A stretch of DNA of 64,000 bases from a virus (taxonomy: Duplodnaviria; Caudoviricetes), in IMG/VR virus record IMGVR_UViG_3300032030_002018. One strand, 5' to 3'. The notes under the pieces were generated by a model that did not search any database, had not been told where the DNA came from, and saw only the letters and a program-made list of their open reading frames with translations. This document shows positions 2,029 through 50,887 of the stretch, piece after piece; the first letter of the stretch is position 1, and every line of letters starts with the position of its first letter. A program made the translations under genes and the position numbers.

Positions 2029-2355
2029 ATGAAAAGAAGAATTAGACTAACAGAATCTGACCTGCACAGAATCATAAATCGGTCAGTGAAAAGAACGCTT
2101 AACGAGATTAGAGATACCGCTGAGACTTTTGGAGAATTTGCAGATACACCTTATCGAACACTTCACACTGGTTTAAAGAGTAAAAAAGAACAGATGGATT
2201 CTGATTGGGAAGACCTTGATGAATACTATCCATTCGGACACGGTAGATATCCTGCTGATTATGATGCTTCTGAATTGGCTCGTCTAAATTATGAAGATTG
2301 GAATCCTAGCCAACTTGATAACCAACATATACACGACTTTTATTTGGATAGATAA
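2029..2355 (+). CDS. LTESDL-leader protein (putative head-packaged internal protein)
   Basis: N-terminus MKRRIRLTESDLHRIINRSVKRTLNE. Confidence 0.75.
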   Translation: MKRRIRLTESDLHRIINRSVKRTLNEIRDTAETFGEFADTPYRTLHTGLKSKKEQMDSDWEDLDEYYPFGHGRYPADYDASELARLNYEDWNPSQLDNQHIHDFYLDR

Positions 2356-2384
2356 TAATTTATAAACTAGATAACAAAATAAAT

Positions 2385-2648
2385 ATGAAAAGAAGAATTA
2401 GACTAACAGAATCTGACTTGCACAGAATCGTAAATCGGTCAGTGAAAAGAGTGTTAAAAGACAACATATTTGAATCATCAATGAATGATACTTACTCATT
2501 TAGACAGTTTAGAAACTCTATGTGGAATACCATTGATGATGCGTTAAAAAGAACATTTAGAGAATTTGTTCAATATGTAGGAGACGGATGGGAGGTAACT
2601 AACCCAAATAATGAAGAAGAGTTTATTCATATAACTTTCGGAGATTAA
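2385..2648 (+). CDS. LTESDL-leader protein
   Basis: N-terminus MKRRIRLTESDLHRIVNRSVKRVLKD; upstream DNA nearly identical to that of the previous gene. Confidence 0.75.
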   Translation: MKRRIRLTESDLHRIVNRSVKRVLKDNIFESSMNDTYSFRQFRNSMWNTIDDALKRTFREFVQYVGDGWEVTNPNNEEEFIHITFGD

Positions 2649-2726
2649 TGCAATAAATCAAACTATTTTCTCTTTATATTATCCGGAATAATATTATATT
2701 ATATATATAAAATATTATTTAATATT

Positions 2727-3182
2727 ATGTCTAAATTATATAGTTATTATTCTGATAATATTGACAGGGCTTGGTACAAAAGTTCTAATATTCTTTACAG
2801 TGAGTGTATTGACAATGACAATGAATTAAAGACATTGAAGGTTGTTTTCAACAATGGTTCTGAATATCAGTATGATAAAGTTGATGTGAGGGATTATTTA
2901 CTGTTCAGGGAAAGCGATTCACAGGGAAAGACGTTCAACAGACTGATTAAAGAGAAAAAGTATGAGTATTCCAAGATTGGTGATGCTGATTTGGACAAAA
3001 TTAATGAGGAGTATGTGTTTAGAAGTGGAAACGGAGTTACAATCAAATATGACAATGACGGAATACTTGTAACAGACACAAAAGAAAATATCCTTGTAAA
3101 CCAAAGAGTGCCATTCAATGATGAACAAGTGAAAGTAATTGCTGAACTACTTGAAAATATTGGATATAAAGTACGGTGTTAA
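2727..3182 (+). CDS. KTSC-domain protein
   Basis: SSNI...TLKVVFNNGSEYQYDKV...FRESDSQGKTFNRLIK fits the KTSC pattern. Confidence 0.75.
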   Translation: MSKLYSYYSDNIDRAWYKSSNILYSECIDNDNELKTLKVVFNNGSEYQYDKVDVRDYLLFRESDSQGKTFNRLIKEKKYEYSKIGDADLDKINEEYVFRSGNGVTIKYDNDGILVTDTKENILVNQRVPFNDEQVKVIAELLENIGYKVRC

Positions 3183-3185
3183 AAA

Positions 3186-3215
3186 AATGGATGACTTTTA
3201 TGTGGTCATCCATTT
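3186..3215 (+). terminator. intrinsic terminator
   Basis: aaatggatgac / gtcatccattt hairpin after the KTSC gene. Confidence 0.65.
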
Positions 3216-3278
3216 ATTGTTTAATAATATATCACCAAAGTTTGACTATTTCAAATAAATAGTTATTTTTTATAAAAA

Positions 3279-5759
3279 ATGAGTTTTAATGATGGAATAT
3301 ACACACCTGAATTCAATAATGTCATAGAGTATATGATTGAGACATTATCAGCAGAATTCCCAACGGATGTCATAACATCTGAATACCTTATCACTTCGAT
3401 ATTGGATAATAAATACTGCCACGCAAATATGATATTATCCAAATGCCTTTCAAATGAAAATGTGCAAAGGCTGAAAGATATATATACAGAATACCTTAGT
3501 AACTATTATGACCCCTCAATCAAGCATAATGGAAATTCAGCCACATTCAGTCAGGAATTAGACTTCATAATGAACAGACTGAATGATGAGAGAGTTAATA
3601 CAAAAAGCACTATCATAGGTACTGAACATATATTACTTACAATACTAAACCCATCGAACAACATAAAAGCATCTGGCGTTTTTCAATCTATGGGATTGTT
3701 ATATGACGACCTTTTAAACAAATGCACAGAAAGAAGACTAAATAAACCTGTTAAATATGTGGGGAATAGAATGAACGGTATAAACAGCCCATCAATGGAA
3801 ATACCAGCAAAGGGTGCTACAAACCAAATGGCAATAACGACAAGCAATGATTTCATAAAGAAATACACAATAAACCTAAATGAAAAATACTCCAAAGGCG
3901 AATATGATGAATTGATTGGGAGGGAAAATGAAAAGGGTCAGATTATCAAGGCTTTGATGAGAAGGAAGAAAAACAACGCGATACTGATTGGTGACAGCGG
4001 TGTTGGAAAAACCGCTATAATCCAAGGTATAGCAGAACTTATCGTTAAGAATGAAGTACCTGACACATTGAAAGACAAACAAATGCTTATGTTGGATATT
4101 ATGACACTCATAAGCGGTACAAACCTGAGGGGTATGTTTGAGGAAAGAGTCAAAGGACTTTTTGATGAAATCAAGTCTTCAAATAAATATATTCTTGTAA
4201 TTGACGATATACATACAATAATCAAAAACGGACAAAAGGAAAAGGATACTGATATATCAGGAATGATAAACGATATATTATCAGGTGGAGAAGTCAGAGT
4301 AATAGCTTCAACTACGTTTAAAGATTACAGAAACAGCATTGAGCCTAATTCCTCAATATCAAAGAAATTCCAAAACGTAATCATAGAACCGCTGAATAAA
4401 TCACAGGCACTTGAAGTCATATTGTCAAACAAATCATATTATGAGGGTTTCCATAACGTCAAATATTCAGAAGAAACCTGCAAGAAGGCTGTTGAACTTG
4501 CTGATAGGTATATAACTGACAGGAAATTGCCTGATTCAGCGTTTGATATCATAGACCTCTCAGGTGCGTATATGTCATATAAGACAAAACCAAAAACAGA
4601 CCCGTCAAAGTTAATAAGAGTTAAAGAACTTGAAGAAGAGGAGCAAATAGCAATGAATCGAGGTGACTTTGAGAAAGTTGAGGAACTATCAAAGGAAAAA
4701 AATACAATCAATAAAGAAATTGCTGATGATAAAAGGAATATATCAGACAATCCATTTGAAATAACAGAAAACGACGTTGCGTATACCGTATCAGAAATGA
4801 CAAATATACCAATGTCAAAACTAACCTCTGACGAAAAAAAGAAAATAGCGAATATTGGAGAAATACTCAAAGAACATATCATAGGACAAGACGAAGCGAT
4901 TGATTCTGTATGCCAAGTGATAAAGAGAAACAAGGTAGGGCTTGGTGACAAGAGCAAGACACAGGGAGTATTCCTTCTTGAAGGAAAGTCTGGTGTTGGA
5001 AAGACATTACTTGCAAAGATGTTGGCAAAGGAGATATACGGTGACGAGAACGCTCTTGTAAGAATTGATATGTCAGAGTATTCTGAAAAGAATTCTGTAA
5101 GCAAACTAAATGGAACAAGTCAAGGATATATCGGATACGAGGACGGAGGAATACTTACAAACGCAATCAAAAAGAAACCATACTGCGTCATATTGTTAGA
5201 TGAGATAGAAAAGGCTAACGACGAAGTATATAACATATTCCTGCAATTATTTGATGAGGGAAGGTTGACGGAAAGTAATGGAAATGTTGTCAATTTCAAA
5301 AACACAATGATACTTATGACATCTAATATCGGCGCAAGAGAAGTATCAGAATTTGGCGGAGGTGTTGGTTTCTCAATAAATAAATCAGCAAACGCAAAAT
5401 CAATTATAGATAAGAACATAAAGAGAAAGTTCAGCCCAGAATTCATAAATAGAATTGATAAAATAGTGCATTTCAATGACTTGAATGAAGAAAACCTCAG
5501 GAAAATCGTTGAAATAGAAATAGGTAAGTTAAGAAAAAGGCTAAATGAAATTGGATATGACCTTGAATGCACAGAATCTGCGTTGAGTTATGTACACAAG
5601 AGGTCGATTGAAGAGAAGGATATGGGAGCAAGACCAATAATAAGACTTGTTCAAACAATTATTGAGGACAAGATTACAGACCTTATCCTTGAAAATGATT
5701 ATGATAAAAATCATAAGTTCATTGTTGATTATATTGATGAGAAAGTATCAATTATATAA
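3279..5759 (+). CDS. clpC: ClpC-like AAA+ unfoldase
   Basis: Clp-N-like repeats, Walker A GDSGVGKT and GKSGVGKT, UVR-like coil, RIDMSEY, LLDEIEKA, ClpP-docking VGF loop, GARPI. Confidence 0.9.
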   Translation: MSFNDGIYTPEFNNVIEYMIETLSAEFPTDVITSEYLITSILDNKYCHANMILSKCLSNENVQRLKDIYTEYLSNYYDPSIKHNGNSATFSQELDFIMNRLNDERVNTKSTIIGTEHILLTILNPSNNIKASGVFQSMGLLYDDLLNKCTERRLNKPVKYVGNRMNGINSPSMEIPAKGATNQMAITTSNDFIKKYTINLNEKYSKGEYDELIGRENEKGQIIKALMRRKKNNAILIGDSGVGKTAIIQGIAELIVKNEVPDTLKDKQMLMLDIMTLISGTNLRGMFEERVKGLFDEIKSSNKYILVIDDIHTIIKNGQKEKDTDISGMINDILSGGEVRVIASTTFKDYRNSIEPNSSISKKFQNVIIEPLNKSQALEVILSNKSYYEGFHNVKYSEETCKKAVELADRYITDRKLPDSAFDIIDLSGAYMSYKTKPKTDPSKLIRVKELEEEEQIAMNRGDFEKVEELSKEKNTINKEIADDKRNISDNPFEITENDVAYTVSEMTNIPMSKLTSDEKKKIANIGEILKEHIIGQDEAIDSVCQVIKRNKVGLGDKSKTQGVFLLEGKSGVGKTLLAKMLAKEIYGDENALVRIDMSEYSEKNSVSKLNGTSQGYIGYEDGGILTNAIKKKPYCVILLDEIEKANDEVYNIFLQLFDEGRLTESNGNVVNFKNTMILMTSNIGAREVSEFGGGVGFSINKSANAKSIIDKNIKRKFSPEFINRIDKIVHFNDLNEENLRKIVEIEIGKLRKRLNEIGYDLECTESALSYVHKRSIEEKDMGARPIIRLVQTIIEDKITDLILENDYDKNHKFIVDYIDEKVSII

Positions 5760-12679: not shown

Positions 12680-13103
12680 ATGAAAAAAAAAACTCATTAA
12701 ACTTACAGAATCCGACTTGAATAGAATCGTGAACAGGTCGGTGAAAAGAATACTTAGAGAAGATTTGGGGTCAGAATGGGAAAGTGGTTTTCCTCAATTT
12801 TGGGAATTATCAATACCAAACAAAAATATGAATTTAAGATACAAATTAACGCCACAAGATATGGAACTTATAAGCCAACATAGATTTGGTTTATGTAATT
12901 TATGGGAAATCATATGGGAAAACGTTCCAATTAATAAAAGAACAGGAAAGCCTTCAAAATCATTGAATTGGGATGTATATTACAAATATAAAGATAATCC
13001 AGCAAAAATATTCGAATGGTTGGCAAGACAAGGATATGATATATGGACAGAATGCGAAGAAATGGATTGGGAAGGCGTTTACGAAGATGATTATTTCAAA
13101 TAA
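12680..13103 (+). pseudogene. LTESDL-leader gene frameshifted in an A10 tract
   Basis: ATG+A10 gives MKKKTH*; with A9 it reads MKKKLIKLTESDLNRIVNRSVKRILRE into ORF 12717..13103. Confidence 0.7.
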
Positions 13104-13123: not shown

Positions 13124-13723
13124 ATGAATAAGACAATTAATCGTATATTTGATACTTTATCAAAAGCAGATATATCACCCACTTCAAATTATAGCGTACC
13201 AGAATATTGGATGCGTCGTGCAATGAAAGGTGATGAAAAATGTAAAAGGAATCTCTTTAATTGGATTTCAAATATGTTTGGAGTTGATGAACACACATTA
13301 AATTCAATTTTCAATGAGAAATATGGTATTAACGAGAATAGAAAAAAGAAACTCATTAAACTTACAGAATCCGACTTGCAAAGAATCGTGAACAGGTCTG
13401 TTAAGCAAGCACTGAAAGAAGCAAAAGTTGAAGACTGGGATGATGACGACTTCATTACTTGGGATGACTATGCTTATTATTGCAATCATAGTGCTGATTG
13501 GGTAGATAAAAATAGCGAAAAAAGTGACAGATTAGGAATTCCAGATGACGAAAGATGTTACTTTTGTCAAAAACCAGTAAAAAAATATAAAACACTTTAT
13601 GCAAAACCTGGGGAATATCCATATTATGGAAAGCCTGGTCAAGGGCGTACAGATACATTTAAAGTTGGACCAACTTGTGCAAAGGCTGTTGAAAAAGCAC
13701 ATAATGATAAATACGGAAAATAA
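13124..13723 (+). CDS. protein with internal LTESDL leader
   Basis: internal KKKLIKLTESDLQRIVNRSVKQALKE; C-terminal CxxC. Confidence 0.75.
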   Translation: MNKTINRIFDTLSKADISPTSNYSVPEYWMRRAMKGDEKCKRNLFNWISNMFGVDEHTLNSIFNEKYGINENRKKKLIKLTESDLQRIVNRSVKQALKEAKVEDWDDDDFITWDDYAYYCNHSADWVDKNSEKSDRLGIPDDERCYFCQKPVKKYKTLYAKPGEYPYYGKPGQGRTDTFKVGPTCAKAVEKAHNDKYGK

Positions 13724-14127
13724 TGAAAAGAAGAATTAGATTAACAGAATCAGACCTTCACAGAATTATTAACAGGTCAGTTAAAAGAGTACTGAAAGAA
13801 TCACAAAGACAGCAGGAGATTTTTACAATATCGGCACTTGACATTGAAAACGAAGAAGATGTAAGTGATATGCAATATTGTGGAAAATCTTATTATGATA
13901 TTGATGAAGCCATTGAAGCAGCAACAGAATTCGCTAAAACACTTTCTGATTATGATAGTGTGATTATTGTTACAGTCTATGGTGGAGAGTATGAAACACA
14001 AAGCGGAGATGTATATGGAGAACCGTTTGATATATACACAATATCTAATAGCGACCAAGAAACAACAGAAATCGCAAGAGAAGAAGCAGGATATTATAGG
14101 TTGGATGTTGATGACTATGCTGTATAA
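13723..14127 (+). CDS. LTESDL-leader protein
   Basis: MKRRIRLTESDLHRIINRSVKRVLKE. Confidence 0.75.
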   Translation: MKRRIRLTESDLHRIINRSVKRVLKESQRQQEIFTISALDIENEEDVSDMQYCGKSYYDIDEAIEAATEFAKTLSDYDSVIIVTVYGGEYETQSGDVYGEPFDIYTISNSDQETTEIAREEAGYYRLDVDDYAV

Positions 14128-14157: not shown

Positions 14158-14544
14158 ATGAAAAGAAGAATTAGATTAACAGAATCTGACCTGCATAGAA
14201 TTATTAACAGGTCTGTGAAAAGAATATTGAATGAAGTCAAACTTGATAATCCTCATAATAACTTAGGTTATGTTGATGATATGGTTTCAAATCACAAAGA
14301 CATATATTCAAAGGGTGCAAGAATTGAAGAATGTTTGGCAGAACTAATGGTTGATAACGGATTGACAATTGAAGATGTTGAACAATATGATAACCTTATG
14401 TCCATTATAGACCGCAATAGATTAAATGACGCAATAGAAGAATATAAATCATTTCTTCAAAAACAAGAGGCTTACGATAAAAAACAAGAATATGAAGCCT
14501 GGGCAGAAGACCAAATGTCAGATATGGGTTTAGATTATGAGTAA
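14158..14544 (+). CDS. LTESDL-leader protein
   Basis: MKRRIRLTESDLHRIINRSVKRILNE. Confidence 0.75.
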   Translation: MKRRIRLTESDLHRIINRSVKRILNEVKLDNPHNNLGYVDDMVSNHKDIYSKGARIEECLAELMVDNGLTIEDVEQYDNLMSIIDRNRLNDAIEEYKSFLQKQEAYDKKQEYEAWAEDQMSDMGLDYE

Positions 14545-15768: not shown

Positions 15769-16750
15769 ATACTAATAAACTTGTCCAATTATTTCTTTTT
15801 GCAGAATTATAAGCACCACCAAATTTCTTAATCATATCCCTTGCACCTTTGGATTTTCTTGCAGCATCTAACACGTTTTCCAACTTATCCCAATAACCAG
15901 CATCCTTATTCTTGTTTTCGAAAAATTCATCAATCCAACCATTCTTTACAGAAGAACTATAAGCTGGTTGATTACCAACTTTCATAGCATACTTTCCATC
16001 ATATTTCAATGCCTCTTCCTTGCATTTTTCATATGTCCATTTCAATGTTGCACCAAGAGAACCTTTACCAACGCCTGTTCTTGCCTTGTTTAAAGTAACC
16101 CATCCATCTGAAATGTATCTGTTTTTCCAATAATCTTCAAGTTCCTGACTCTTACTTGCAATCACATTCTCTTCTAATATCTTTGGAGAAGGAATCTCAA
16201 TATCATTCTCATTTGCAAATTTCCATACAATATCATATTCTCGTTCACCATCTGAATGACCATAACCTTTCCTATGCTGTCTGTCTCTTCTCTTTATATT
16301 ATTGGTTCTACCAACATAAAACGCCTTTAAATCAACAAATTCATAAACATATACAACATTAATAGGGTCATCATAACGCATATAATGAATTGAATCATCA
16401 TAAAACATTGAAGCAACCTCATCTAACCAATTGTGCTTTCTCAAACTAGTATAGCAAGGACTATTATGTTTCTCTAAATCAAATTTGTTATGATATTTAC
16501 GTGCTTCCTCAATGCAATGTTCTTTATCATTCCAATACCCAACAGGTTTATAAACTATACCATTTCTAACACACACAGGGCATCCTTGTTTCTTATTAAC
16601 CAACCTATAAAAATCCTTATGGAATTCTCCGTGTTCAGGACAAAACAGTGTGATATCAGATTTTGCATTCTTATATTCCCATCCTTCTTCTAATTTGTAC
16701 TTGTTACCGTGGACTTCTCTAATCTTTTCTAACGCTTCTTTAGTTTCCAT
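15743..16750 (-). CDS. GIY-YIG putative homing endonuclease
   Basis: CPEHGEF...GCPVC Zn module; VVYVYEF...FYVGRTNNIKRRDRQH; repeated W..E.C.EEA.KY units. Confidence 0.75.
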   Translation of the reverse strand: METKEALEKIREVHGNKYKLEEGWEYKNAKSDITLFCPEHGEFHKDFYRLVNKKQGCPVCVRNGIVYKPVGYWNDKEHCIEEARKYHNKFDLEKHNSPCYTSLRKHNWLDEVASMFYDDSIHYMRYDDPINVVYVYEFVDLKAFYVGRTNNIKRRDRQHRKGYGHSDGEREYDIVWKFANENDIEIPSPKILEENVIASKSQELEDYWKNRYISDGWVTLNKARTGVGKGSLGATLKWTYEKCKEEALKYDGKYAMKVGNQPAYSSSVKNGWIDEFFENKNKDAGYWDKLENVLDAARKSKGARDMIKKFGGAYNSAKRNNWTSLLVYGKDCEAN

Positions 16751-16980: not shown

Positions 16981-18987
16981 TTAACGCAACTCACTGATTG
17001 ACCAATGAACAAGTCCGTCCACCCTCACGTGGCCGTAAAAGCGATTGTTGACTACCTTCTTCGCATATCTCGTCATTATACCTTTGACGGGAGCAAAGTT
17101 AAATGGATTATACATAGTAGGTGTTAACTGCATTGGCACGTATGGTGCGTAAATATAACCTGTGTCGAGGAGTGACTTACCCTTGTGACCGATGATAATT
17201 GACCAGTGTGGTGAATATGGGTCACGATAAACTTGGTAGCGTCCTGCGAGTGCGCCAATCTTTTCAATACCCATATTGTACTGGTCGCTTTCTGCGCTTG
17301 CGTCAGAAACGTGGAAGTACTCAAGGTTATCGAAGAGTGCGGATATTTCAGAAGATACTACAATGAAGTTTGCGCCACCACGGAGAGTTGCCTTATGTAT
17401 CTGTGCTGAAATCTGGTTAATCTTTGTGAAGAGTTCCTGGTTCCAGTCCTTCTGAGTGTAGTTAGTAGAGAATGCTGCCATTCTTCTCCAACCGTTGACA
17501 TCCCATCTTGCCTGCCAAGGAGCGGCTTTACGGAGGTCACGAAGAATCTCACGGTCAATTTCTGCTGCGATTTGTTCAGAAAGAATTGCTGTAAGTTCTG
17601 CCTCTGCGTCAATGTTATGGAATGCGCTAACGTCCTGTGCAAGTTCAGGAGACCAAGTTGCACGAAGTTTTCTTTCAGTAACTGATACTGTTACAGAATC
17701 GAGTTTGAAAGAAACCTCACCGATTTCGGTTTCAAGTTCAAGTGAATCGTACTGTGCCCAAGCAATCTTGAAGATTTCTGCTGTTGCATCTACATCAGTT
17801 GGGAATTCTCCAAGTGAATCTGCTGATACACCAACATAACCGTCAATTGTTCCACCTTGCTGCTTAACTGGTTTTGCGAGGTCAAGTTCAAGATAGATAT
17901 TTCCTTCTGCGTCACAAGCGCTGGAGTATTCTACAATACCCTTACCGTACTTTTGAGTAGCAACACGGAAAGGAACAGATTCAAACTGCTTGAAAGAAGA
18001 TGTGGTAACGCCAGATGCGCCTTCAACTTCACCAGCTGCAAGTTCCTTCATTGTGATAACTTTCAAAGAAGCCAAGAAAGCTTCTGTATCCATTTCGTTT
18101 CCGTCAGGACCTGTAAGTTTAGAAGCGTTGAAAGAAGAGAAGCCACCTACTTTAAGGATGACGTTACGAACAGTTCCGTCAAATCCGTTAAGTTGCCAGG
18201 TTACACCACTTGGAGGGGTATCCATACCTCTTGGAGTAAGGAATACAGGTGTTGCTTCACCAACCTTGATAGTAACTTTACCCTTAGAATTGTCATAAAG
18301 GAAGTCGTTATAGAAGAGGTCGTAAAGTGACTTTTGGAAGTACTTTGTTACCTCAGGACCAGCCTGACGATAGTTAGATGCAGGGATTGTTGGGTCAGCC
18401 TTAACTGCCTGTTGAAGTGCGTAACCGCTTTCGTATTCGTCTTCACCTGCTTCGATAGCTGGATTGATTTTTACAAACTTCTTTTCAAGTTCGTTAATTG
18501 TCTCGTCTGGGAGATAGTAGCGTGGTTCAACTTGTCCACCCTTATTGTTATTAACTCTATCGTAACCCATAAGACCTGTATGACGTCCTGTAGTTCCGTC
18601 TACGATATCACCAGGAGTGTACTCTTGGTCTGTTGGAAGTTCCCACTCTCTTTCTGATGTAACAGGAAGGATGAAGAACAACTTACCCACTGGCAAGTTC
18701 ATTGCCTGAACAGAAACGATATCGTTAGCAAGCAATTTGCTGAACACACGGCGAATGATAGGGAACACAACTGTTTCAAAAGAACCGCTGTTATCGGCTG
18801 CTGTTGCTTCTGAAATAAGGTGTTTTGCCTCGTTTTCGTAGAGTGTAGCGATATTTTCCTTAATAGTACCTTCAAGACCTTCGGTAAATCCGAGAGAGTC
18901 CCAACGTTTTTGGATGCTTTCACGAATCCTTCTCTGTTCGTTCAGTTCGATATTACCAACCTGTCCGCTTGATAAAAATTCTCTCAT
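16981..18987 (-). CDS. major capsid protein, T4 gp23-like
   Basis: LLANDIVSVQAMNLPVG, RKLRATWSPELAQDVSAFHNIDAEAEL, YAPYVP, KGIMTRY. Confidence 0.95.
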   Translation of the reverse strand: MREFLSSGQVGNIELNEQRRIRESIQKRWDSLGFTEGLEGTIKENIATLYENEAKHLISEATAADNSGSFETVVFPIIRRVFSKLLANDIVSVQAMNLPVGKLFFILPVTSEREWELPTDQEYTPGDIVDGTTGRHTGLMGYDRVNNNKGGQVEPRYYLPDETINELEKKFVKINPAIEAGEDEYESGYALQQAVKADPTIPASNYRQAGPEVTKYFQKSLYDLFYNDFLYDNSKGKVTIKVGEATPVFLTPRGMDTPPSGVTWQLNGFDGTVRNVILKVGGFSSFNASKLTGPDGNEMDTEAFLASLKVITMKELAAGEVEGASGVTTSSFKQFESVPFRVATQKYGKGIVEYSSACDAEGNIYLELDLAKPVKQQGGTIDGYVGVSADSLGEFPTDVDATAEIFKIAWAQYDSLELETEIGEVSFKLDSVTVSVTERKLRATWSPELAQDVSAFHNIDAEAELTAILSEQIAAEIDREILRDLRKAAPWQARWDVNGWRRMAAFSTNYTQKDWNQELFTKINQISAQIHKATLRGGANFIVVSSEISALFDNLEYFHVSDASAESDQYNMGIEKIGALAGRYQVYRDPYSPHWSIIIGHKGKSLLDTGYIYAPYVPMQLTPTMYNPFNFAPVKGIMTRYAKKVVNNRFYGHVRVDGLVHWSISELR

Positions 18988-19029: not shown

Positions 19030-20580
19030 TTATTTGCATAATCTATGCATCAAGTCCAATGAACTGAGCAGGTCATCGGATTTATAGATACGAGTCTCAT
19101 TAACTTTTTTATTTTCAGTCAAGAATTCAGGATTGCTGATGTTGATTTTGTTTCTGTTTTGCAACTCCCTTGAAATTGACTCGTATAGATTTCTTGATTC
19201 CTTGACTGTTTTCGCCTCATTTCCAAATCGTGCGATAATCTCCTTCTTTTCGTCAGAGCTGGTTGAGTTTTCAGAGATGAGTTTTATTATTTGTCCAAGA
19301 TTGACATTTGTCACAGCTGCTTCCTTAAGAATGCCTTTGAATTGGTTAAGAGCGCGTTTAAGTTCATTATTCTCACGGAAAATGTTATTTGCCCTTCTTA
19401 CAACTGATTCAGTAGTAACATCGTCTTCTCTATTGGAATATCTTGGGGTTACAGTTCCCTTTATTCTCCTTCCACCCTTGCTTGCGCTTCTTGCGCTTCT
19501 ACCGTTTGAGTTTGGAACGTGTGATTTGGAAGTTGAGTTTTGTTGAACGAAGCCCCCAACGTTTGTTGCCTCTTCAAGTTCCATATCGTCTTCTTCCTCA
19601 ACAGTTTTTCCTTTTCCGGCTGTGAAAGGTTTGTCTGCTGATTTCCTTGGATATCCTGACCAAGGTTTAGCGTCACCCTTTGGAACACCCTTATCCCAAT
19701 CTCTTACATTTTTGCCAGGTTCTGACATACCAGGATTACTCATAACATCATTTTTCTGATAGTTATCAGTATATCCAACGTTGGAATCGTATTCATTCAG
19801 GGCGATTTCAAAAATCATCGATTCATTCATTGTTTTATCATTATTATCTTCGTCTTCTTCGGAATCCTCATCAGTATCATCCTCCAAGACATTATCTTCA
19901 TCATCGTCGATTTCGACCTCGATATCATCGTCATCAGTGTCGTCGTCTTCTGTATCATAAGAAACCTCAATATCAACATCGTCATCAGTATCGTCAATAT
20001 CAACATCTGTATCGTCAAAATCAGTGTCAATATCTGTATCAACGTCTGTATCCGTGTCCATATCAAGAATTATCTCACTATCAGCAGAATCAGCGTCATC
20101 ATCAAGAACGATGATATATTCTGCCCCGGTTTCATTGTCTTTAACGTTGACCTTATTGTCAGTTTTCTTAATTACAACTTGGTCGTCGTTATTGAGCAAT
20201 TTATAAACCTTCACGACTTCATCGTCTTCCGCGTTAGAGAAATCATACTCGTCATCTGATACCTTATACTTATCAAAATCAGACCATTCCTCAGCATCAT
20301 CAGAATCTATATCTGAATCCATATCGCCTGTTTCATTTTCGTCTGAATCATCGGTATCAATTTCAGTATCTTCCACCTCTTCAACATCATAAGCGTCGTC
20401 ATCCTCGTCTTTGTCATCTTCTTCAGATTCGTTCAAGATTTTTGTATAGGTTTCACGAACTGCGTCATTAAGCAAATCCTTAACAGCATTTGTCGTGTTT
20501 TCCTTAAGCAATCCTTCGATATTGCTGAACTCATCAAGAGATTCCTTGACATATTTGCTTCTGATATTTTCTTTTTTCAT
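19030..20580 (-). CDS. prohead core scaffold protein, gp22-like
   Basis: directly upstream of MCP; very acidic; many L/I-x-E sites; coiled C-terminus. Confidence 0.7.
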   Translation of the reverse strand: MKKENIRSKYVKESLDEFSNIEGLLKENTTNAVKDLLNDAVRETYTKILNESEEDDKDEDDDAYDVEEVEDTEIDTDDSDENETGDMDSDIDSDDAEEWSDFDKYKVSDDEYDFSNAEDDEVVKVYKLLNNDDQVVIKKTDNKVNVKDNETGAEYIIVLDDDADSADSEIILDMDTDTDVDTDIDTDFDDTDVDIDDTDDDVDIEVSYDTEDDDTDDDDIEVEIDDDEDNVLEDDTDEDSEEDEDNNDKTMNESMIFEIALNEYDSNVGYTDNYQKNDVMSNPGMSEPGKNVRDWDKGVPKGDAKPWSGYPRKSADKPFTAGKGKTVEEEDDMELEEATNVGGFVQQNSTSKSHVPNSNGRSARSASKGGRRIKGTVTPRYSNREDDVTTESVVRRANNIFRENNELKRALNQFKGILKEAAVTNVNLGQIIKLISENSTSSDEKKEIIARFGNEAKTVKESRNLYESISRELQNRNKINISNPEFLTENKKVNETRIYKSDDLLSSLDLMHRLCK

Positions 20581-20755: not shown

Positions 20756-21910
20756 ATGAATAAAGGTGTAATAAAAGAGATAAAAAAGGGAGAAACAGGT
20801 AAGGGATTGTTAATTGAATCTGATGGATACATATCAATGAACCTGTCAGAAAACAACAGAAGGATATGCGAGGATTTCAGACAGGATGGATGGAATGTAC
20901 CAAAGCCATTCATCGTTGATGCTGTATTTCAGAAATTTGATACAAAAAATGCAAACGGAAGAATATATCCTGAGAAAATATTAAAGGAACAAGTTGAAAT
21001 ATACCAACAGAAAATCAAAGAAAGAAGAGCATACGGTGAATGCTATAAACCAGATGCACTGATATTAACTGAAACCGGATGGAAAACACTGGAAGAAGTT
21101 AAAGTTGGCGATAATATACTCACGTTAAATGTTGAAACAAATCAAATCGAAATTCAACCTATATATGAAAAGGTTGAATATGATTATGAGGGAGATATGA
21201 TAAGGATATACAATAGGAACATTGATGATATTGTAACGCCAGAACACCAATACATCGTATATGATAATGATACAAAAAAATATCTTAATAGATATACAGC
21301 CACAGAAATTATGTACGGAGATTTCGATGATAAACTATATATTCCAAATATCGGTATAAATGACGGAATTCTTCTAAAAGACGTTAAATCAGAAAAAATC
21401 CCATATAATGGCAAAGTTATGTGTGTAAAAGTTGAAAATCACAACTTCTATGTTATGTGTAACAATAAAACACACTGGACATCAAATTACTGTAACCATC
21501 CGTCGGACACCACAATTGACCTTGGACGAATATCACATAACATCATTGAGTTACATTGGGTTGGAAAAACACTTGTTGGAAAAATGGAACTCAACATATC
21601 TGAAGGTTTCAGGCGTAACGGAATATGTTCGTCATATGGAGATACTGTTGCATTGCTATTGCTTAATGGATATAAGATTGGAGTGTCTTCAAGAGGAGTT
21701 GGAAATGTTGAAATGAAAATGGGAAATTATATCGTTGGAGACGATTTTGAAATAATCTGTTGGGATACCGTTTCTGACCCAAGCACTCCGGGGGCTTTTA
21801 TATCATCAAACGGTCCTGATGAATTACGGCAATATGTAGAAAATTCAGAAAAGGATAAATCAAAACTTATTTCAGAAAAAATAAACAAAATAAAAAACAT
21901 ACTTAAATAA
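20756..21910 (+). CDS. prohead core protease, T4 gp21-like, with intein
   Basis: NANGRIYP, GE[intein]CNHP, SHNI, GVSSRGVG, DTVSDPSTPGA. Confidence 0.92.
   Translation: MNKGVIKEIKKGETGKGLLIESDGYISMNLSENNRRICEDFRQDGWNVPKPFIVDAVFQKFDTKNANGRIYPEKILKEQVEIYQQKIKERRAYGECYKPDALILTETGWKTLEEVKVGDNILTLNVETNQIEIQPIYEKVEYDYEGDMIRIYNRNIDDIVTPEHQYIVYDNDTKKYLNRYTATEIMYGDFDDKLYIPNIGINDGILLKDVKSEKIPYNGKVMCVKVENHNFYVMCNNKTHWTSNYCNHPSDTTIDLGRISHNIIELHWVGKTLVGKMELNISEGFRRNGICSSYGDTVALLLLNGYKIGVSSRGVGNVEMKMGNYIVGDDFEIICWDTVSDPSTPGAFISSNGPDELRQYVENSEKDKSKLISEKINKIKNILK
21041..21487 (+). mobile_element. mini-intein (149 aa, no endonuclease) in gp21
   Basis: CYKPDALILTETGWK block A, VTPEH block B, YNGKVMCVKVENHNFYV...HWTSN blocks F/G. 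Confidence 0.88.
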
Positions 21911-26705: not shown

Positions 26706-27479
26706 TTACCAATACTCTCTTTCATCTGATGTATCCAAATAATCACTACACCTTCGTTCTAATTCATCAGAAATTTCCCGCCTAATGAATTTCCTTAATC
26801 TGATTTTATCAGAATCATTAGGTACATATTCATTTAAAATCTTACCTTCTATTCTATTCAACAATTGTGATATTTCTCCTTTTATGCTCTTTTTCTCATA
26901 ATCATTGCCATAAACTGATATATCAAGTATATGTAGTAGGTCTTGATTTAATTCATCGTCGAAACATTGTTTAATAATACTTCGCCAAGAAGAATTCCCC
27001 TTTTTATATCCGTTCCTATCTACATTGTCTCTATTCAATCCATTCTTGTTGAACCCCTGACGATTAAAACCATCTCTATCAATACCATATCGGTTAAAAC
27101 CTTCTCTATTATATCCTTCACGGTCATAACCTCTATTGTTGAAACCTTCTTTATCAAAGCCACTTCTTCCAAAACCATTCTTATCATAACCTTCTCTATC
27201 ATATCCTTCACGGTCATAACCATTAACATCCCTTTTTGGAATTCTCTTTAACCCTATTTCTGGTTCCCGATTATTTGTTTTAACTAAAGTATCTGTTGTT
27301 ATCCAATCTTTAGGCATTTTACCATTGTATTCACCAAACGTATCATCCAAATATTTCCTGGTACCGTATTTATCATCAAGTTTTGGCTTTACCTCTATTT
27401 CATTTAATATTCTTTTCACAGACTCTGATACTATTCTTCTCAATCCTGATTCTGTTAATCTAACTCTATTTTTTCTCAT
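26706..27479 (-). CDS. LTESxL-leader protein with G[YF][DN]xx pentapeptide repeats
   Basis: MRKNRVRLTESGLRRIVSESVKRILNE; GYDREGYDREGYDKNGF... repeats. Confidence 0.8.
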   Translation of the reverse strand: MRKNRVRLTESGLRRIVSESVKRILNEIEVKPKLDDKYGTRKYLDDTFGEYNGKMPKDWITTDTLVKTNNREPEIGLKRIPKRDVNGYDREGYDREGYDKNGFGRSGFDKEGFNNRGYDREGYNREGFNRYGIDRDGFNRQGFNKNGLNRDNVDRNGYKKGNSSWRSIIKQCFDDELNQDLLHILDISVYGNDYEKKSIKGEISQLLNRIEGKILNEYVPNDSDKIRLRKFIRREISDELERRCSDYLDTSDEREYW

Positions 27480-27559
27480 AATTTTCATCAGTTTAATAAT
27501 TATTATTAAACTAAACGGAAAAATACTGGATAATTGTTATATTTATATTAAAAAATATA

Positions 27560-28207
27560 ATGGATACAAAGGAAATCAACAAGATTATAAACAAATTATA
27601 TCGCATTGTTCAAAAAAGCGGATATAGCGGAAAACTGTATCGTGACGACGACTGGTCAGGATTATTCTCAATAAGAGAGATTGTCCAACCAGTACTTCCA
27701 CCAGGATTCAGACTGATTATGAACCACGTGTACGGATATACACAAGACGGCAATTCAAAGGAATATCAATTCACAGTCGAACACGAAGAAACCGGAGAGC
27801 AAATAATTGACGGATATATCACAGCTCACGCAGCCGGGAATATGAACGATAAATGGAGCGCATACGATATAACAGCACAATGGGCAAAACATAATAATAC
27901 ATATACAGAATCAAATAAGATGAAAAAGAAACTTGTAAGATTAACAGAATCTGACCTACATAGAATTGTTAATGAGTCAGTAAGAAAAGTATTGAGAGAA
28001 TGGAACAATGATTACGAAGGAAACGACTTAACATACGATTCAATAAAAATGCAAGCAGAACATATCATACCACAAATGGAACAGAATGGAGAACCAATCT
28101 CTTGGAGGAATGTTGCAAAACAAATGGGATTCAGACTTGAAACACTCAACGGAGATGATATGGAACTGCTCAAAGACACAATAGAAGAAGTTATGATGTA
28201 TATGTAA
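27560..28207 (+). CDS. protein with internal LTESDL leader
   Basis: internal MKKKLVRLTESDLHRIVNESVRKVLRE. Confidence 0.75.
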   Translation: MDTKEINKIINKLYRIVQKSGYSGKLYRDDDWSGLFSIREIVQPVLPPGFRLIMNHVYGYTQDGNSKEYQFTVEHEETGEQIIDGYITAHAAGNMNDKWSAYDITAQWAKHNNTYTESNKMKKKLVRLTESDLHRIVNESVRKVLREWNNDYEGNDLTYDSIKMQAEHIIPQMEQNGEPISWRNVAKQMGFRLETLNGDDMELLKDTIEEVMMYM

Positions 28208-29407: not shown

Positions 29408-30013
29408 ATGAAAAGAAAAATTAGACTAACAGAATCTGACCTTCACAGAATCGTGAATGAGTCAGTGAAGAGCATATTAACCGAACTTGATTGGAGAACA
29501 GTAGTGAGTGCCGCTAATAAGGCACGTGCCAAATTTAAAGATATGGTAGTTGACCGTGCAATGGGACAACTTGACCCTTATGGCAAATATAGTAAATTAA
29601 CTGGACAATACGGACCACATAGTGATTATGTAATTAAAAGAAGTTGGAAAAGTCCTAAAGGTTCAACTCGTTGGGTTAACAAAGATGACGAAATACGAAG
29701 AAAGATGAGGCAAGCAGATAATCTTTCTAAATTTGCCGACGAAGCAATTAAAGATAGATTCGGTAAAGAATCATATTACAACAATTTAAATGGAGTCGGA
29801 GAAGAATTCCCAGTATATAGAAAAACGCGTAATAACAGAGAAATGGATGAACCAGAAGTTTTGGACTACACCCCAAACAATGATTATGTAAATGGAGAAT
29901 ACGGTGATTATGAATTAGACAGTATGCCACAAAAATACCAAGATAATGCCAAGGAAATTAATGATTTCCAAAACGGGAAAACAAAATATCTTAAAGGAAG
30001 AGGATGGAAATAA
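29408..30013 (+). CDS. LTESDL-leader protein
   Basis: MKRKIRLTESDLHRIVNESVKSILTE. Confidence 0.78.
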   Translation: MKRKIRLTESDLHRIVNESVKSILTELDWRTVVSAANKARAKFKDMVVDRAMGQLDPYGKYSKLTGQYGPHSDYVIKRSWKSPKGSTRWVNKDDEIRRKMRQADNLSKFADEAIKDRFGKESYYNNLNGVGEEFPVYRKTRNNREMDEPEVLDYTPNNDYVNGEYGDYELDSMPQKYQDNAKEINDFQNGKTKYLKGRGWK

Positions 30014-34554: not shown

Positions 34555-35643
34555 ATGAATTCTTTAAAAACAACAATATATAAAAATTTAAAAAATGAGG
34601 GAATTGACGATATCCGAATTAAAGACATAATAAAAGAAGTAGAAGAATATTACAATTATTTGAATGACTTTAACCTTGAGCGATTAGATTATATTGGATT
34701 TTTAAGGGCAATTCAATATGGGAAATTCTTGAAAGTAAACGATGTCTATTGGAAAAATGCAAATGTTTGGAACGATACCAAAATATACTCAGATGACGGT
34801 ATCGTAATTTGGAAACCACGTAATTTCAAAGAATCAGAAACTTTGGGAAACCAAATATGGTGTGTTTCATATAGAGACTACAGATGGAATGAACACGTCA
34901 ATTATAATGGTGAAACTATTTATATGATATATAATGGATGGGTAGATGAATATTTACAATACACAAGTGCTTGTGTTGAACGGAATGGAAACATAATAAT
35001 TTATGATTGCAAACATAATCAACTATCTGGGGAAGAGAAAAAAACTTTCTTAAAAAGTTTGGGGAAAGGCTTATCAGTTTTAAAGCCAACTCCAAAGGAA
35101 AAAGATAGAGTTCCACAAAATATATCAGTTGATAATGATGGAAACTATGTATCGGCAAATGATGATGGCGCGGATTACGTATCAGAAAATAATCAATATA
35201 AATATAATAGAAATAATATGAAAAAGAGAATTAGACTAACAGAAAGTGACCTACATAGAATAGTGAACAGGTCAGTAAAAATGACACTGAATGAAATCGG
35301 TGATACAACCAAGGGACAGTATATGCTTGGAAGATTGTATGCTAAATATAAAGGGGAAAACGATGAAAAAGCAAGAGAGATAGATAAGTACGCATCTAAT
35401 CGTAGGAAAGAACAGAATAATGGTTACGATAACCTTCCGAGCTATTGGGGACTTGGTAGATGTACCAACCCTATGAGGCACGAATTCAAAGATGGTGTAG
35501 AGGAATATTGTTTAACACCGGGTACACCAGCTTTGGGATGGATAAAACATCTTGATAAGTTAATAGCAAAATCTCATCTCAATGGCGATGAATCAAGGTG
35601 GCGGTTAGAAAGAGAACTTGAAGACGGAGCTCTTAGACGCTGA
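34555..35643 (+). CDS. protein with internal LTESDL leader (IS passenger)
   Basis: internal MKKRIRLTESDLHRIVNRSVKMTLNE; TATTTAT motif upstream. Confidence 0.75.
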   Translation: MNSLKTTIYKNLKNEGIDDIRIKDIIKEVEEYYNYLNDFNLERLDYIGFLRAIQYGKFLKVNDVYWKNANVWNDTKIYSDDGIVIWKPRNFKESETLGNQIWCVSYRDYRWNEHVNYNGETIYMIYNGWVDEYLQYTSACVERNGNIIIYDCKHNQLSGEEKKTFLKSLGKGLSVLKPTPKEKDRVPQNISVDNDGNYVSANDDGADYVSENNQYKYNRNNMKKRIRLTESDLHRIVNRSVKMTLNEIGDTTKGQYMLGRLYAKYKGENDEKAREIDKYASNRRKEQNNGYDNLPSYWGLGRCTNPMRHEFKDGVEEYCLTPGTPALGWIKHLDKLIAKSHLNGDESRWRLERELEDGALRR

Positions 35644-35645
35644 TA

Positions 35646-36623
35646 TTAAGCAGCCACAAATCCTGCTCTTATATCAGACCATTTCTTAACAAGTCCTATA
35701 GACTTGTTGAACATATCAATGAAGCGTTCCGTTTGGGACGCTTTTCTTGTATTCCACCTATACACAGCCTCATCAATGTAAGACTGCAAATGAGCATCAC
35801 TCACGTCGTGGTAACAACCTGTTATCATCCTTCTGAAATGACTCCAAAAACCCTCAATGCCATTCGTGAAAATGTCATCCTTGACATACTCATCAGAGCC
35901 GTGGCACACAACCTCGTGAGTATAACCAAGTTCTGACAAACCATTGTATGAATTCAACTCATCAGTGATAACCCTTGAACCATCAACAACGAACTGACCA
36001 ATGATGGGAAGCAAGGTGTCCTTGTTCGTGTTCTCAACGACAAACGCGTGAACGTATGACATAGGTTCTTCCTCACCCCTTACATTGATGAAGACATCAC
36101 GCTTTACCATACCAAAGACAGGTGTCTTCGTCTTGGTGGAACGTCCCTGAGTGTGTGGTGTGCGCATTGACTTGTGCTTCCACTTCTCCCTGCCACCGAT
36201 ATACACCTCATCACATTCAACCGTGCCGTCAAATCCCTCTGTGTCACTCTGTTGGAACAGAGCGCGTATCTTGTGAAGCATATGCCAAGCAGTCTTCTGT
36301 GATATGGCTATGTCACGAGCCAACTGACAGGATGAAATGCCTTTCTTGTGGGAAGAAATAAGGTACATAGCCACGAACCACTTGGTAAGTGGTGTCTTGG
36401 TGTTCTCAAAGATTGTTCCTACAAGGCAGGAAAAGTACTTGTTGCAATGAGTGCAATGGTATCTGCCGTTCTTGGCGGTCTGGCAGTGATGTTTGCCACA
36501 ATATGGGCAAATGATGTCTCCGTCGGCCCATCTGCTTTCGATGATTGTCTGTTTGCAGATGTCTTCGGTGTTGAAGTAAGTGGTAAGAGAGATAAGGCTG
36601 TTGAACTTGGTAAAATCTATCAT
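35646..36623 (-). CDS. IS1595-family DDE transposase
   Basis: CPYC...CTHC Zn ribbon, VECDEVYIGG, VITDE, TNGIEGFWS. Confidence 0.93.
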   Translation of the reverse strand: MIDFTKFNSLISLTTYFNTEDICKQTIIESRWADGDIICPYCGKHHCQTAKNGRYHCTHCNKYFSCLVGTIFENTKTPLTKWFVAMYLISSHKKGISSCQLARDIAISQKTAWHMLHKIRALFQQSDTEGFDGTVECDEVYIGGREKWKHKSMRTPHTQGRSTKTKTPVFGMVKRDVFINVRGEEEPMSYVHAFVVENTNKDTLLPIIGQFVVDGSRVITDELNSYNGLSELGYTHEVVCHGSDEYVKDDIFTNGIEGFWSHFRRMITGCYHDVSDAHLQSYIDEAVYRWNTRKASQTERFIDMFNKSIGLVKKWSDIRAGFVAA

Positions 36624-36859: not shown

Positions 36860-36900
36860 TTATTCGGAAAACTGTTCGCCCAAAAAACACCATTGAAATA

Positions 36901-40719: not shown

Positions 40720-41001
40720 TTAGCAATAAGAATGTAGTTTATATTTTTTATTTGGGTTTTTCTTTCTCAATTCCCTTAATTTATCTTCAACTTGTGCGTG
40801 CGAACTCAAATCATAAAGAACCTTATCTGTATCAGCATCAACAATAAGTTCTCCATTCTTCACCTCATAATCCTTATAATATCTCTTTTTCTTATTGCCA
40901 CTTTGGTCTTGTTTGCCATAGGCACTTTCCCTTAATATTCTTCTTACAGACCTATCAACCATCCTGTATAGGTCACTTTCAGTTAATTTAATTCTTCTCA
41001 T
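40720..41001 (-). CDS. LTESDL-leader protein
   Basis: MRRIKLTESDLYRMVDRSVRRILRE. Confidence 0.75.
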   Translation of the reverse strand: MRRIKLTESDLYRMVDRSVRRILRESAYGKQDQSGNKKKRYYKDYEVKNGELIVDADTDKVLYDLSSHAQVEDKLRELRKKNPNKKYKLHSYC

Positions 41002-49056: not shown

Positions 49057-49070
49057 ATCTTTATTGTTTT

Positions 49071-49256: not shown

Positions 49257-49337
49257 ATCTCTATTATGTTTTTATTGGTTATGTTCCAAATGTACACAAT
49301 TTATTTTACAATTCCAAATGTTTTGAGGATTTTTTTA

Positions 49338-49553
49338 TTACATTTGTGTGAAAATGTAATATCCCATCTTGTCCACATCAATCTCGCCATCCTCATCAAT
49401 AAGGTTGTTTGCTATGGCGTCGTCCATTGAGATTTCCCCAACATACTCACCAAATAACTCATTGTCTGTGGATACATAGACATCAAAGAATGAACGATTG
49501 GTGTCTGTATCATAGCACTTCTTCACAAGGTAATTGTCAACTTTAATGCACAT
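49338..49553 (-). CDS. hypothetical protein
   Basis: ORF after promoter repeat. Confidence 0.6.
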   Translation of the reverse strand: MCIKVDNYLVKKCYDTDTNRSFFDVYVSTDNELFGEYVGEISMDDAIANNLIDEDGEIDVDKMGYYIFTQM

Positions 49554-49653
49554 ATTGTTTCTTGTTTTATTGGTTTAACTGATGCAAATGTAAGAAATTT
49601 ATTTTAATCTACCAAACTTTTGGATTATTTTTTTTAGGTAATAATATACAAGT

Positions 49654-49846
49654 TGACCCATTGAGAAAGTTACTTGACCTGTTCCTCCGTCCTCCCTTAC
49701 ATCGTTAGCATCGCAGTTGCGTGAAATGGTTCGTGGTATTGTGTAATACGTCACCAAATGTCGATGCGATATGGGTTTGCCAACTAAGCCTACCACAGCC
49801 AATGGTCGAAGCCATAGTAGTTAGTACTCACTTAATCTTTAGGTCA
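49654..49846 (-). ncRNA. candidate structured ncRNA (~190 nt)
   Basis: GC-elevated intergenic stretch closed by tgacc/ggtca with internal hairpins; strand inferred from neighbours. Confidence 0.4.
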
Positions 49847-49866
49847 TTGCTATATTATTTCCTTTT

Positions 49867-50286
49867 TTAATATGGATGATTAATTTCTTTAAGATGGTCA
49901 ATGATAATCTTTGATGTCTTGCAAGCGTATTCATTTCTGCCATCATAATAGTTCTTTTCGCAATTCTCTGCGAGTTTGGATATGTATGCCATACACACCT
50001 TGAACATCTCATTTTGTAGGTATCTATGGTCGTAAGACATCTTTTCAGCGACCCTTGTCTTACTGCGCATCTTCCCATTGACAAAGTTACCAAACTGCCT
50101 TGCAAAGACATCATCCTCTGTCTCATTGTCACGTCTGCACATCCCATATTCAAACCTTTCAAGGACTTGATTCAATAGGTGTGTTTTTCCATCACTTGTT
50201 ATCAAATCTCCTTTTATCAGTGAGACAATCTCCTCATTTGTAAGTTGATAACTCTCTAATTCTCTTCCTTCTACTTTGAACTTCAT
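49867..50286 (-). CDS. hypothetical protein
   Basis: 139-aa ORF after promoter repeat. Confidence 0.7.
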   Translation of the reverse strand: MKFKVEGRELESYQLTNEEIVSLIKGDLITSDGKTHLLNQVLERFEYGMCRRDNETEDDVFARQFGNFVNGKMRSKTRVAEKMSYDHRYLQNEMFKVCMAYISKLAENCEKNYYDGRNEYACKTSKIIIDHLKEINHPY

Positions 50287-50530
50287 ATCTCTATCTGTTT
50301 TTATTGGTTTAACTTAATGCAAATGTAAGAAATTTATTTGAATTATCCAAATATTTTGAGAACTTTTTTCAATTTTTTTATAGGTGCGTCCTGAGCACAC
50401 GTCTCTCTGACACAAATGTAAGCAATTTATTTTAATCTACCAAATAAATTAACAAAAAAGTGCAATCTCAATTAAGAAATTGCACTTTCCAACATAAAAA
50501 GTTATTAACCAATAAAACAACAAAGATAGA

Positions 50531-50887
50531 TTATACTAAATCGTCGTCTTCAAAATCTTCTTCATCATCCAACAGACCAAAATACTCCAAAGCGTCCTCA
50601 TCAAAGAATTCATTCAAATCATATTCGTCTGTTAATTGGTCAAGAGTGTGATAGCCGGTTGTAGCATATAGCACACTATCCAATGTATCAATAGATAATC
50701 CATTAATGTTTGTAACAAGTTGAAGCGCATCTTCTGACACAATGCCACTATCTATTAGGAAATCATAATATTGCCTTTCTACATTGCTCATACTCTCTTT
50801 AATCAATCGTTTGTTTATTGCTTTTGTAACTCTTTCTGTAATGAGTTGATTCAAGTCATTTTCAGTTAGTCTAATTCTCTTTTTCAT
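50531..50887 (-). CDS. LTExDL-leader protein
   Basis: MKKRIRLTENDLNQLITERVTKAINKRLIKE; TATTTAT motif upstream. Confidence 0.75.
   Translation of the reverse strand: MKKRIRLTENDLNQLITERVTKAINKRLIKESMSNVERQYYDFLIDSGIVSEDALQLVTNINGLSIDTLDSVLYATTGYHTLDQLTDEYDLNEFFDEDALEYFGLLDDEEDFEDDDLV

Follow-up and report, generated by a model that had tools for sequence, protein, structure and literature searches.

In bacteriophage T4, a short capsid-targeting sequence (CTS) is carried by the internal proteins IPI, IPII and IPIII and by the Alt propeptide, and is removed by the prohead protease gp21 (Mullaney & Black 1996; PMC3012670, PMC9026906). This propeptide is 10 residues long in T4, and its processing depends on residues 8 and 10; gp21 cuts after the Glu of (L/I)-x-E, and Asp at CTS position 10 prevents cutting but not targeting (PMC9026906). 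Propeptide-bearing inner-body or ejection proteins, cut after Glu by a gp21-related protease, are also known from phiKZ-like giant phages, i.e., 201phi2-1, phiKZ and SPN3US (PMC5694885, PMC7411985, PMC9026906), while in T4-type phages a conserved promoter and stem-loop (elements termed PeSLs) flank variable open reading frames (ORFs) and are thought to mediate modular shuffling (PMC2839356, PMC4122927). Here, we analyzed a 64,000-nucleotide stretch of DNA (hereafter the window) from the virus record IMGVR_UViG_3300032030_002018, in which a 26-residue peptide, the leader, recurs on otherwise unrelated proteins, the cargos. The analysis established the repeat itself, selection at the peptide level, a terminal motif with a sharp boundary, a promoter class, synteny with head genes, co-occurrence with Peptidase_S77 and an association with an insertion sequence (IS). 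We read the leader, with moderate confidence, as a T4-CTS-like capsid-targeting propeptide that would be cut by the S77 protease and that would belong to T4-related jumbo phages infecting rumen and gut Bacteroidota.

The likeness to the T4 CTS is that of a short N-terminal peptide, ending in (L/I)-x-E, that is common to otherwise unrelated, fast-evolving small proteins. The phage also encodes a Peptidase_S77 and an acidic scaffold, its T4-type capsid protein carries this motif where it aligns with the T4 cut, and the leader genes fall, by promoter motif, into the late class and lie near head genes. In contrast to the T4 CTS, the leader is present in ~30 genes per genome (3–4 in T4) with thousands of cargo clusters, internal and tandem copies are frequent, the cargos are mostly acidic, and there are an IS1595 association and copies in host chromosomes; moreover, the leader system is known here from sequence alone. 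A further parallel, drawn by gene position, is with T4 gp67 and gp68, small acidic late proteins whose genes lie between those for the portal (gene 20) and the protease (gene 21). In four relatives (L017, G007, G002 and G001) this position, between portal and S77/scaffold/capsid, is taken by leader genes; unlike these, gp67 and gp68 are single conserved genes and not a variable library. What is shared with the phiKZ-like phages is that many head proteins are processed after Glu within a short motif and that the host receives a large complement of internal proteins, but these phages form a separate lineage, their propeptides are long rather than one shared peptide, and cleavage was shown there by mass spectrometry. 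PeSLs resemble the leader region in that a terminator hairpin, TATTTAT and the leader recur before different cargos; however, PeSLs are early-promoter, non-coding elements, whereas the leader block is late-type and extends into the coding sequence, where it forms a peptide under selection. The sequence-only reading had seen here a candidate for an undescribed system, which goes too far, given that T4 reviews already cover diverse internal proteins with only the CTS conserved (PMC3012670, PMC9026906). The principle is thus known from T4, and what is new is the sequence, length, copy number, tandem architecture and transposon association of the leader.

Leader copies were located with a regular expression and then with two leader profiles, one of them wider, by hmmsearch over the six-frame translation at a threshold of E<1e-3. 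This gave the consensus MK[KR]RIRLTESDLHRIVNxSVKRxLxE (26 residues). The sequence-only reading had placed the peptide on at least 12 ORFs and suggested building a hidden Markov model of it; the model matched 30–31 copies in the 334,687-bp genome, with 12 in the window (9 N-terminal and 3 internal) at the places that had been named. The window copies are as follows (aa, amino acids).

2029..2355 (+): leader gene, 108 aa; leader ending TLNE, acidic cargo, TATTTAA motif upstream.
2385..2648 (+): leader gene, 87 aa; leader ending VLKD, with Asp replacing Glu at the predicted P1.
12680..13103 (+): leader gene, frameshift-broken or frameshift-dependent; leader frame from 12684, TATTTAT at ~12641.
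13124..13723 (+): 199-aa protein with an internal leader at 13343-13420, a profile match.
13723..14127 (+): leader gene, 134 aa; cargo very acidic.
14158..14544 (+): leader gene, 128 aa; last in a four-gene leader array.
26706..27488 (-): leader gene of 260 aa and of the MRKNRVRLTESGL subtype; the leader begins with Met at 27479.
27560..28207 (+): protein of 215 aa; the leader is internal (27923-28000), and TATTTAT precedes the long ORF.
29408..30013 (+): leader gene of 201 aa; the cargo is basic and is conserved in 5 homologs from the database.
34555..35643 (+): late-promoter protein of 362 aa; the leader is internal (35218-35295), and the gene is convergent with, and abutting, a transposase gene.
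40720..41001 (-): leader gene, 93 aa; TATTTAT motif, surrounded by early genes with the host-type TACATTTG promoter.
50531..50887 (-): leader gene of 118 aa and diverged sequence, its motif running on to RLIKE; TATTTAT motif, within an early-gene block.

Profile matches placed the leader at the head of the ORFs at 2029(+), 2385(+), 13723(+), 14158(+), 27479(-), 29408(+), 41001(-) and 50887(-), the last having diverged (E 2e-6 in the search with the wider profile), and inside ORFs 13124, 27560 and 34555, where the leaders start at 13343, 27923 and 35218. At 12680(+), also proposed as an ORF head, the leader is present, but the ATG lies one base off the leader frame and a frameshift is needed: the ATG at 12680 is followed by an A10 run (12683-12692), and nine A's would give MKKKLIKLTESDL. 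This run could be an assembly error or could mark a broken gene or pseudogene, or slippage-dependent expression. Since the internal-leader DNA of the 13124 gene is almost identical to the 12684 copy, the sequences suggest a recent duplication or conversion. In ORFs 27560 and 34555, TATTTAT precedes the long ORF instead of the internal leader, and both are therefore true fusions and not mis-called starts. The looser variants that had been listed at 6406, 6959, 9183(-), 25116(-) and 32441(-) did not hold up, none being significant with the leader profiles: the 6406 candidate reached an E of about 1–2, and the other four gave no match in these searches. Circumstantial support exists for two of them, as 6959 has a late-type motif upstream and the 63-codon ORF at 24925-25116(-) lies where a related head module has a leader gene.

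We then compared the copies for signs of selection. Over leader codons 5–26 in 30 genomic copies, synonymous differences were near saturation (pS 0.66) and nonsynonymous differences were far fewer (pN 0.26), and the codons for Ser10 were TCN in 17 copies and AGT in 7. The near saturation of synonymous sites with the amino acids kept, and the two codon types of Ser10, show that it is the peptide itself that is under selection. Saturation at synonymous sites also rules out a pure DNA repeat, and a secretion signal is ruled out, the peptide not being hydrophobic. Some leader subgroups also share ~100 nucleotides (nt) of upstream DNA.

Residue frequencies were taken from 204 copies in the best hits of a search across 1.84 billion representative proteins. 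Among these, L7, E9, L12, S19 and V20 were nearly invariant, position 24 was L or I in 92% and position 26 was E in 96%. Conservation stops exactly past E26: no residue exceeded 18% in the next column, and at this position 27, the predicted P1', Gly, Ser or Ala were most frequent, together accounting for 42%. The leader is basic and amphipathic, with an isoelectric point (pI) of 11.3. An AlphaFold2 model of the 29408 protein, built from six sequences and of modest confidence (pLDDT 62), has a helix at residues 9–26 and a break at 27–28; the peptide is modeled as starting with a basic N terminus, passing through a short, strand-like stretch (IRLTE) and ending in an amphipathic helix at ~9–26. 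A Foldseek comparison of this model with the PDB gave nothing at E<=0.001, and an ESM Atlas look-up with the leader was uninformative.

The sequence following the leader had been described as unrelated from gene to gene, and this was borne out: among the cargos of 33 genomic copies, taken from residue 31 onward, BLASTP gave no match at E<1e-3. Neither leader nor cargo was assigned to a family when ten window leader proteins were compared with Pfam and PHROGs, and Pfam found no consistent domain in 143 database members. For 29408, five homologs in the database show the cargo to be a conserved protein. A suggested role of cargos as anti-defense effectors found no direct support, as no cargo has a recognizable domain.

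The window corresponds to bases 201,184-265,183 of one 334,687-bp virus contig (34% G+C, estimated 96% complete). A T4-type major capsid protein, an acidic scaffold and a Peptidase_S77 prohead protease are all encoded within it, and homologs of portal, sheath, tube and gp25 are located in the genome outside the window. The closest capsid proteins of GenBank phages are ~40% identical, across half of the length only. The head genes relevant to the leader are the following.

16981..18987 (-): T4-type major capsid protein of 668 aa; its predicted maturation site, HLISE|A, aligns with FLTE|A of T4 gp23.
19030..20580 (-): acidic scaffold protein in the gp22 position; N-terminal segment ends TKILNE|SEEDD.
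20756..21910 (+): prohead protease of the gp21 type, Peptidase_S77 (PF03420); N terminus LLIE|S, TATTTAT at -29.

The capsid-protein site LISE and a scaffold site, both proposed from the letters, are indeed present, the scaffold site being KILNE; scaffold homologs adjoin the capsid gene in relatives, and two relatives have IYE|A and VSE|A at the aligned capsid cut position. Because the capsid, scaffold and gp21 sites share the motif, a leader ending in [IVL]-[LI]-x-E has the motif expected for this protease. By analogy with the Asp substitution in T4, the product of gene 2385, with its VLKD ending, would be targeted yet uncut. As a separate observation, the prohead protease gene (20756-21910) has 384 codons versus ~235 in relatives and holds an intein-like insert of ~150 aa (Intein_splicing PF14890, a match below threshold at 27 bits); the relative L017 has an intein in its portal gene.

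Two classes of upstream motif occur in the genome: TTTG ... TAnnTTTG, usually TACATTTG, and TATTTAT[AT], which is placed ~25–35 nt 5' of the start codon. The TAnnTTTG class is of the Bacteroidota housekeeping-promoter type and precedes many small genes at 37–59 kb of the window, while TATTTAT precedes gp21, the sheath gene, the portal and tube operons and several very large genes adjoining the portal gene. TATTTAT had been noted ahead of most leaders as well as gp21 and the scaffold gene; we found that 7 of the 12 window copies have TATTTA[TA] in the 75 nt that precede them, and both of these head genes also follow the motif. Across the genome, TATTTA[TA] precedes 14 of 33 leader genes versus 69 of 395 others (p 0.002), and the host-type TAnnTTTG promoter precedes none of the 33 versus 67 of 395 (p 0.005). 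The leader genes 41001 and 50887, inside the early block, have their own TATTTAT. These motif associations support late expression of the leader genes.

Two further features of the upstream regions were observed. Between 37000 and 59000, dozens of small genes nearly all lie behind the same ~60-nt unit, TTTGG-N-ATAAAT-N-TACATTTG, of the Bacteroidota -33/-7 type, which forms a clean early-promoter set for this phage. A different conserved intergenic unit of ~60 nt, ATTATTATTAAACTAAACGGAAAAATATTGGAT ... TATTTAT, occurs at 27499-27545, 34033-34080 and ~26530-26600 of the window and at 137281-137330 of the genome, between divergent late genes, the other side leading into MRKNR-type leader genes; judging from its sequence and placement, it may be an extended or bidirectional late promoter.

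Leader genes also keep company with head genes. In the window, the head module (capsid, scaffold, gp21 and conserved neighbors) is bracketed by the four-gene leader array at 12.7–14.5 kb and by leader genes at 26.7–30 kb, with only two homing-endonuclease genes between the array and the capsid gene. Among the four relatives described above, a 169-kb contig has the gene for an 84-residue leader protein just before Peptidase_S77, on the portal side, with a 238-residue protein bearing two leader copies close by. The other three, large IMG/VR genomes, have 1–4 leader genes that either separate the portal from protease/scaffold/capsid or come immediately after the protease gene. Each of the 13 large related contigs examined has 5–18 leaders, and 10 of them have S77. 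The three S77-less contigs are also without a full Gp23 match, and their head module therefore probably lies off the contig. A leader gene lies within 3 kb of S77 in 8 of the 10 S77-bearing contigs, against a chance expectation of ~20% per genome, a count that comes from related genomes and so overstates independence. In a broader set, 21–23 of 80 phage loci lie within 3 kb of a head gene, but in contigs of at least 100 kb only 4 of 31 do, and we discounted this proximity because short contigs are called viral largely through such genes.

At the scale of the protein database, the leader family comprises 6,741 representative proteins at E<=1e-3 and 518 at E<=1e-10 (clusters at 50% identity); one hit, the 4,271-aa, Ser/Thr-rich P0036, was rejected as a low-complexity false positive. 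A text search of a literature collection for the peptide string found no paper containing it. The top exact leader matches in bacterial genomes were all in rumen and gut Prevotellaceae or Bacteroidales, which indicates this group as the host. The sequences thus point to an uncultured, T4-related phage of rumen Prevotella-type bacteria.

The bacterial copies revealed a link that the sequence-only reading did not contain, namely to an IS1595 transposase, together with leader copies in bacterial chromosomes. In the window, the ORF at 34555-35643, with its internal leader, adjoins tail to tail the following gene.

35646..36623 (-): IS1595-family transposase; DDE_Tnp_IS1595 PF12762 (E 5.5e-44) and Zn ribbon PF12760.

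With an exact degenerate DNA pattern of the leader we collected 21 bacterial loci; a search of bacterial genomes for related loci with the full leader protein found nothing. At least 15 of the 21 loci have a convergent transposase homolog or remnant beside the leader, two of the genomes concerned being those of isolates, Segatella bryantii DSM 11371 and Prevotella sp. MA2016, and the N-terminal bacterial copies retain the tgaTATTTATtagaaaaa motif. In ~24 of 80 phage loci, the transposase, or just its last 25–47 codons, lies 0.3–0.7 kb downstream of the leader start, and in the genome studied here a transposase or 3' remnant is found at three leader copies (34555 and two others with remnants). 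Between leader–transposase copies, DNA similarity is confined to the leader and the transposase ORF, and the cargo between them differs. Two tandem units at 98.7–100.4 kb of the genome have a terminator hairpin, TATTTAT and the leader in common, and only a few other copies share their extended flank. No convincing inverted repeats bounding an IS were found around 34300-36900. Passenger genes are reportedly a feature of some IS1595-family elements, which Siguier, Gagnevin and Chandler are said to have described in 2009 as 'transporter IS'. The likeness to such elements is a DDE_Tnp_IS1595 plus zinc-ribbon transposase with one adjoining convergent non-transposase gene, in many genomes; the difference is that the passenger here always has the phage leader, plus the late-type motif when the leader is N-terminal, while the rest varies. 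It is likely, from this arrangement, that a leader gene is carried inside an IS1595 element.

Core binding, cleavage, packaging, ejection and the roles of the cargos are what we infer from here on. Leader genes would be transcribed together with virion genes from TATTTAT-type late promoters. During prohead assembly, the leader helix would bind the scaffolding core, and the fused protein would thereby be enclosed. The gp21-type Peptidase_S77 would then cut after the invariant Glu of [IVL]-[LI]-x-E26, freeing in the head a small, often acidic cargo (median 104 aa) that could exit with the DNA. The promoter–leader segment would act as a swappable cassette, recombination between copies placing the tag before new cargos, and an IS1595 element carrying leader genes would spread the tag, host chromosomes included. 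T4-style head targeting of this kind had been proposed in the sequence-only reading, and it fits the L-x-E ending, the capsid site, the S77 gene, the late-type promoters and the head modules of relatives.

Several results weigh against this interpretation. Beyond the terminal h-x-E the leader does not resemble the T4 CTS, at 26 versus 10 residues; tblastn of the leader against 50,697 GenBank phage records gave no match, and the family is hence without a cultured relative. The late-promoter assignment is a motif association, and [ILVM][IL]xE near N termini is not significantly enriched in late genes (21% versus 15% in early genes, p 0.48). The cargos, 23 of 33 with a pI below 6, are unlike the basic, DNA-binding IPII and IPIII of T4, and leader copies occur in isolate bacterial chromosomes without head genes nearby. 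Finally, the word 'leader' suits most copies, which are N-terminal, but not about a quarter of those in the top database hits (51 of 204), which are internal, and 117 of the 176 top proteins have two or more copies. Before internal copies only N/K/E/S-rich linkers were found, with no conserved (L/I)-x-E site, and an upstream domain would therefore retain a C-terminal leader after cutting. Internal and tandem copies are thus also compatible with a docking helix that is retained, or with polyprotein-like products whose upstream domain stays tagged at its C terminus.

We therefore weighed other explanations for the peptide. Its helix could be a retained functional part, for oligomerization or for docking on the scaffold, the inner capsid wall, DNA or a common host target, by which many small late proteins would get one common partner. 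The frequency of internal and tandem copies, the lack of a conserved cut site upstream of internal ones, the copies ending in Asp (window gene 2385), which would be uncut in T4, and the basic, amphipathic character of the peptide all favor a retained helix; however, an abrupt stop of conservation after a near-invariant Glu in a protease motif is unexpected for a plain docking helix, the predicted helix is set apart from the cargo in the model, and Pfam shows no ribbon-helix-helix, helix-turn-helix or coiled-coil family, and we consider this explanation unlikely. We see an even smaller chance, and regard it as a doubtful proposition, that the segment is a mobile DNA cassette, i.e., an IS1595 passenger region or a PeSL-like terminator–promoter, whose function as promoter, translation start or recombination site lies at the DNA or RNA level and whose peptide is kept as a by-product. 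The ~100 nt 5' of the ATG that are conserved along with the leader in phage and bacterial copies, the convergent transposase or 3' remnant just downstream at the bacterial, phage and genomic loci counted above, and the elements shared by the tandem units would all be expected of such a cassette. Yet synonymous sites are near saturation with amino acids kept through TCN/AGT serine switches, most genomic copies have no transposase remnant and differ in their upstream sequences, and mobility accounts for the spread of the tag but not for conservation of the peptide.

An AAA+ gene in the window offers another candidate partner: at 3279-5759, just downstream of leader genes 2029 and 2385, a two-ring ClpA/ClpB-like ATPase is encoded (AAA, AAA_2 and ClpB_D2-small). 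Phage Clp-type ATPases have been proposed as protein translocases that move proteins into heads (PMC7824862), and the peptide could be a recognition tag for this unfoldase, leading to degradation or to unfolding and threading, possibly into the head. We give this very little weight, as the adjacency holds at one place only, nothing ties the remaining 28 copies to this enzyme, and the idea does not account for the (L/I)-x-E ending. A distinct question is posed by the Prevotellaceae chromosomal leader genes, which adjoin an IS1595 transposase and, when N-terminal, keep the phage TATTTAT late-type motif. Such genes might be silent until phage infection and then be expressed by the late machinery and loaded into capsids, either as a selfish virion rider or as a 'Trojan horse' defense in which host genes would spoil or mark progeny heads; we think this quite improbable, but if true, it would mean that a capsid address tag is traded between phage and host by a transposon.

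If the leader is a capsid-targeting propeptide, as we favor, dozens of different small proteins would be loaded per virion in a clade of gut and rumen jumbo phages, and the 6,741 clusters would form a large unexplored reservoir of proteins delivered at the onset of infection, where anti-defense and host-takeover functions are expected. Being portable, 26 residues long and cut at a defined site, such a tag would moreover be of practical use for loading foreign proteins into phages of Bacteroidota, a purpose the T4 CTS serves for E. coli phages. The IS1595 link provides a concrete route for shuffling of cargo genes and for their exchange with the host.

Several neighboring genes were observed in addition. 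The two homing-endonuclease-like genes between the leader array and the capsid gene, at 14563-16750, match HNH or other endonuclease PHROG families, and DUF723-type endonuclease genes are scattered across the same head module in related phages. Within the head-gene neighborhood, 22009-24144 encodes a 711-residue BspA-type leucine-rich-repeat protein, a paralog of which, at 138127-139347 of the genome, has the late-type promoter motif. Outside the window, the genes next to the portal gene include those of two large late proteins of 1207 and 519 aa (genome 185771-189394 and 189551-191110 (-)), which have in common an N-terminal segment, RIIRQVINEQILLTEGDSR, containing h-x-E motifs; from its sequence, this segment may be a second, shorter type of propeptide. 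A TnpB gene (OrfB_IS605 and Cas12f1-like TNB) at 30367-31572 adjoins the leader gene 29408-30013, and 3–4 further TnpB copies lie at 304–318 kb of the genome. Finally, 59500-62500 holds ~ten small paralogous genes of 64–91 codons, a multigene family unrelated to the leader, with a motif such as G-[IMF]-[YF]-GD-YILAKR near the N terminus, or FPLFFYE-YK.

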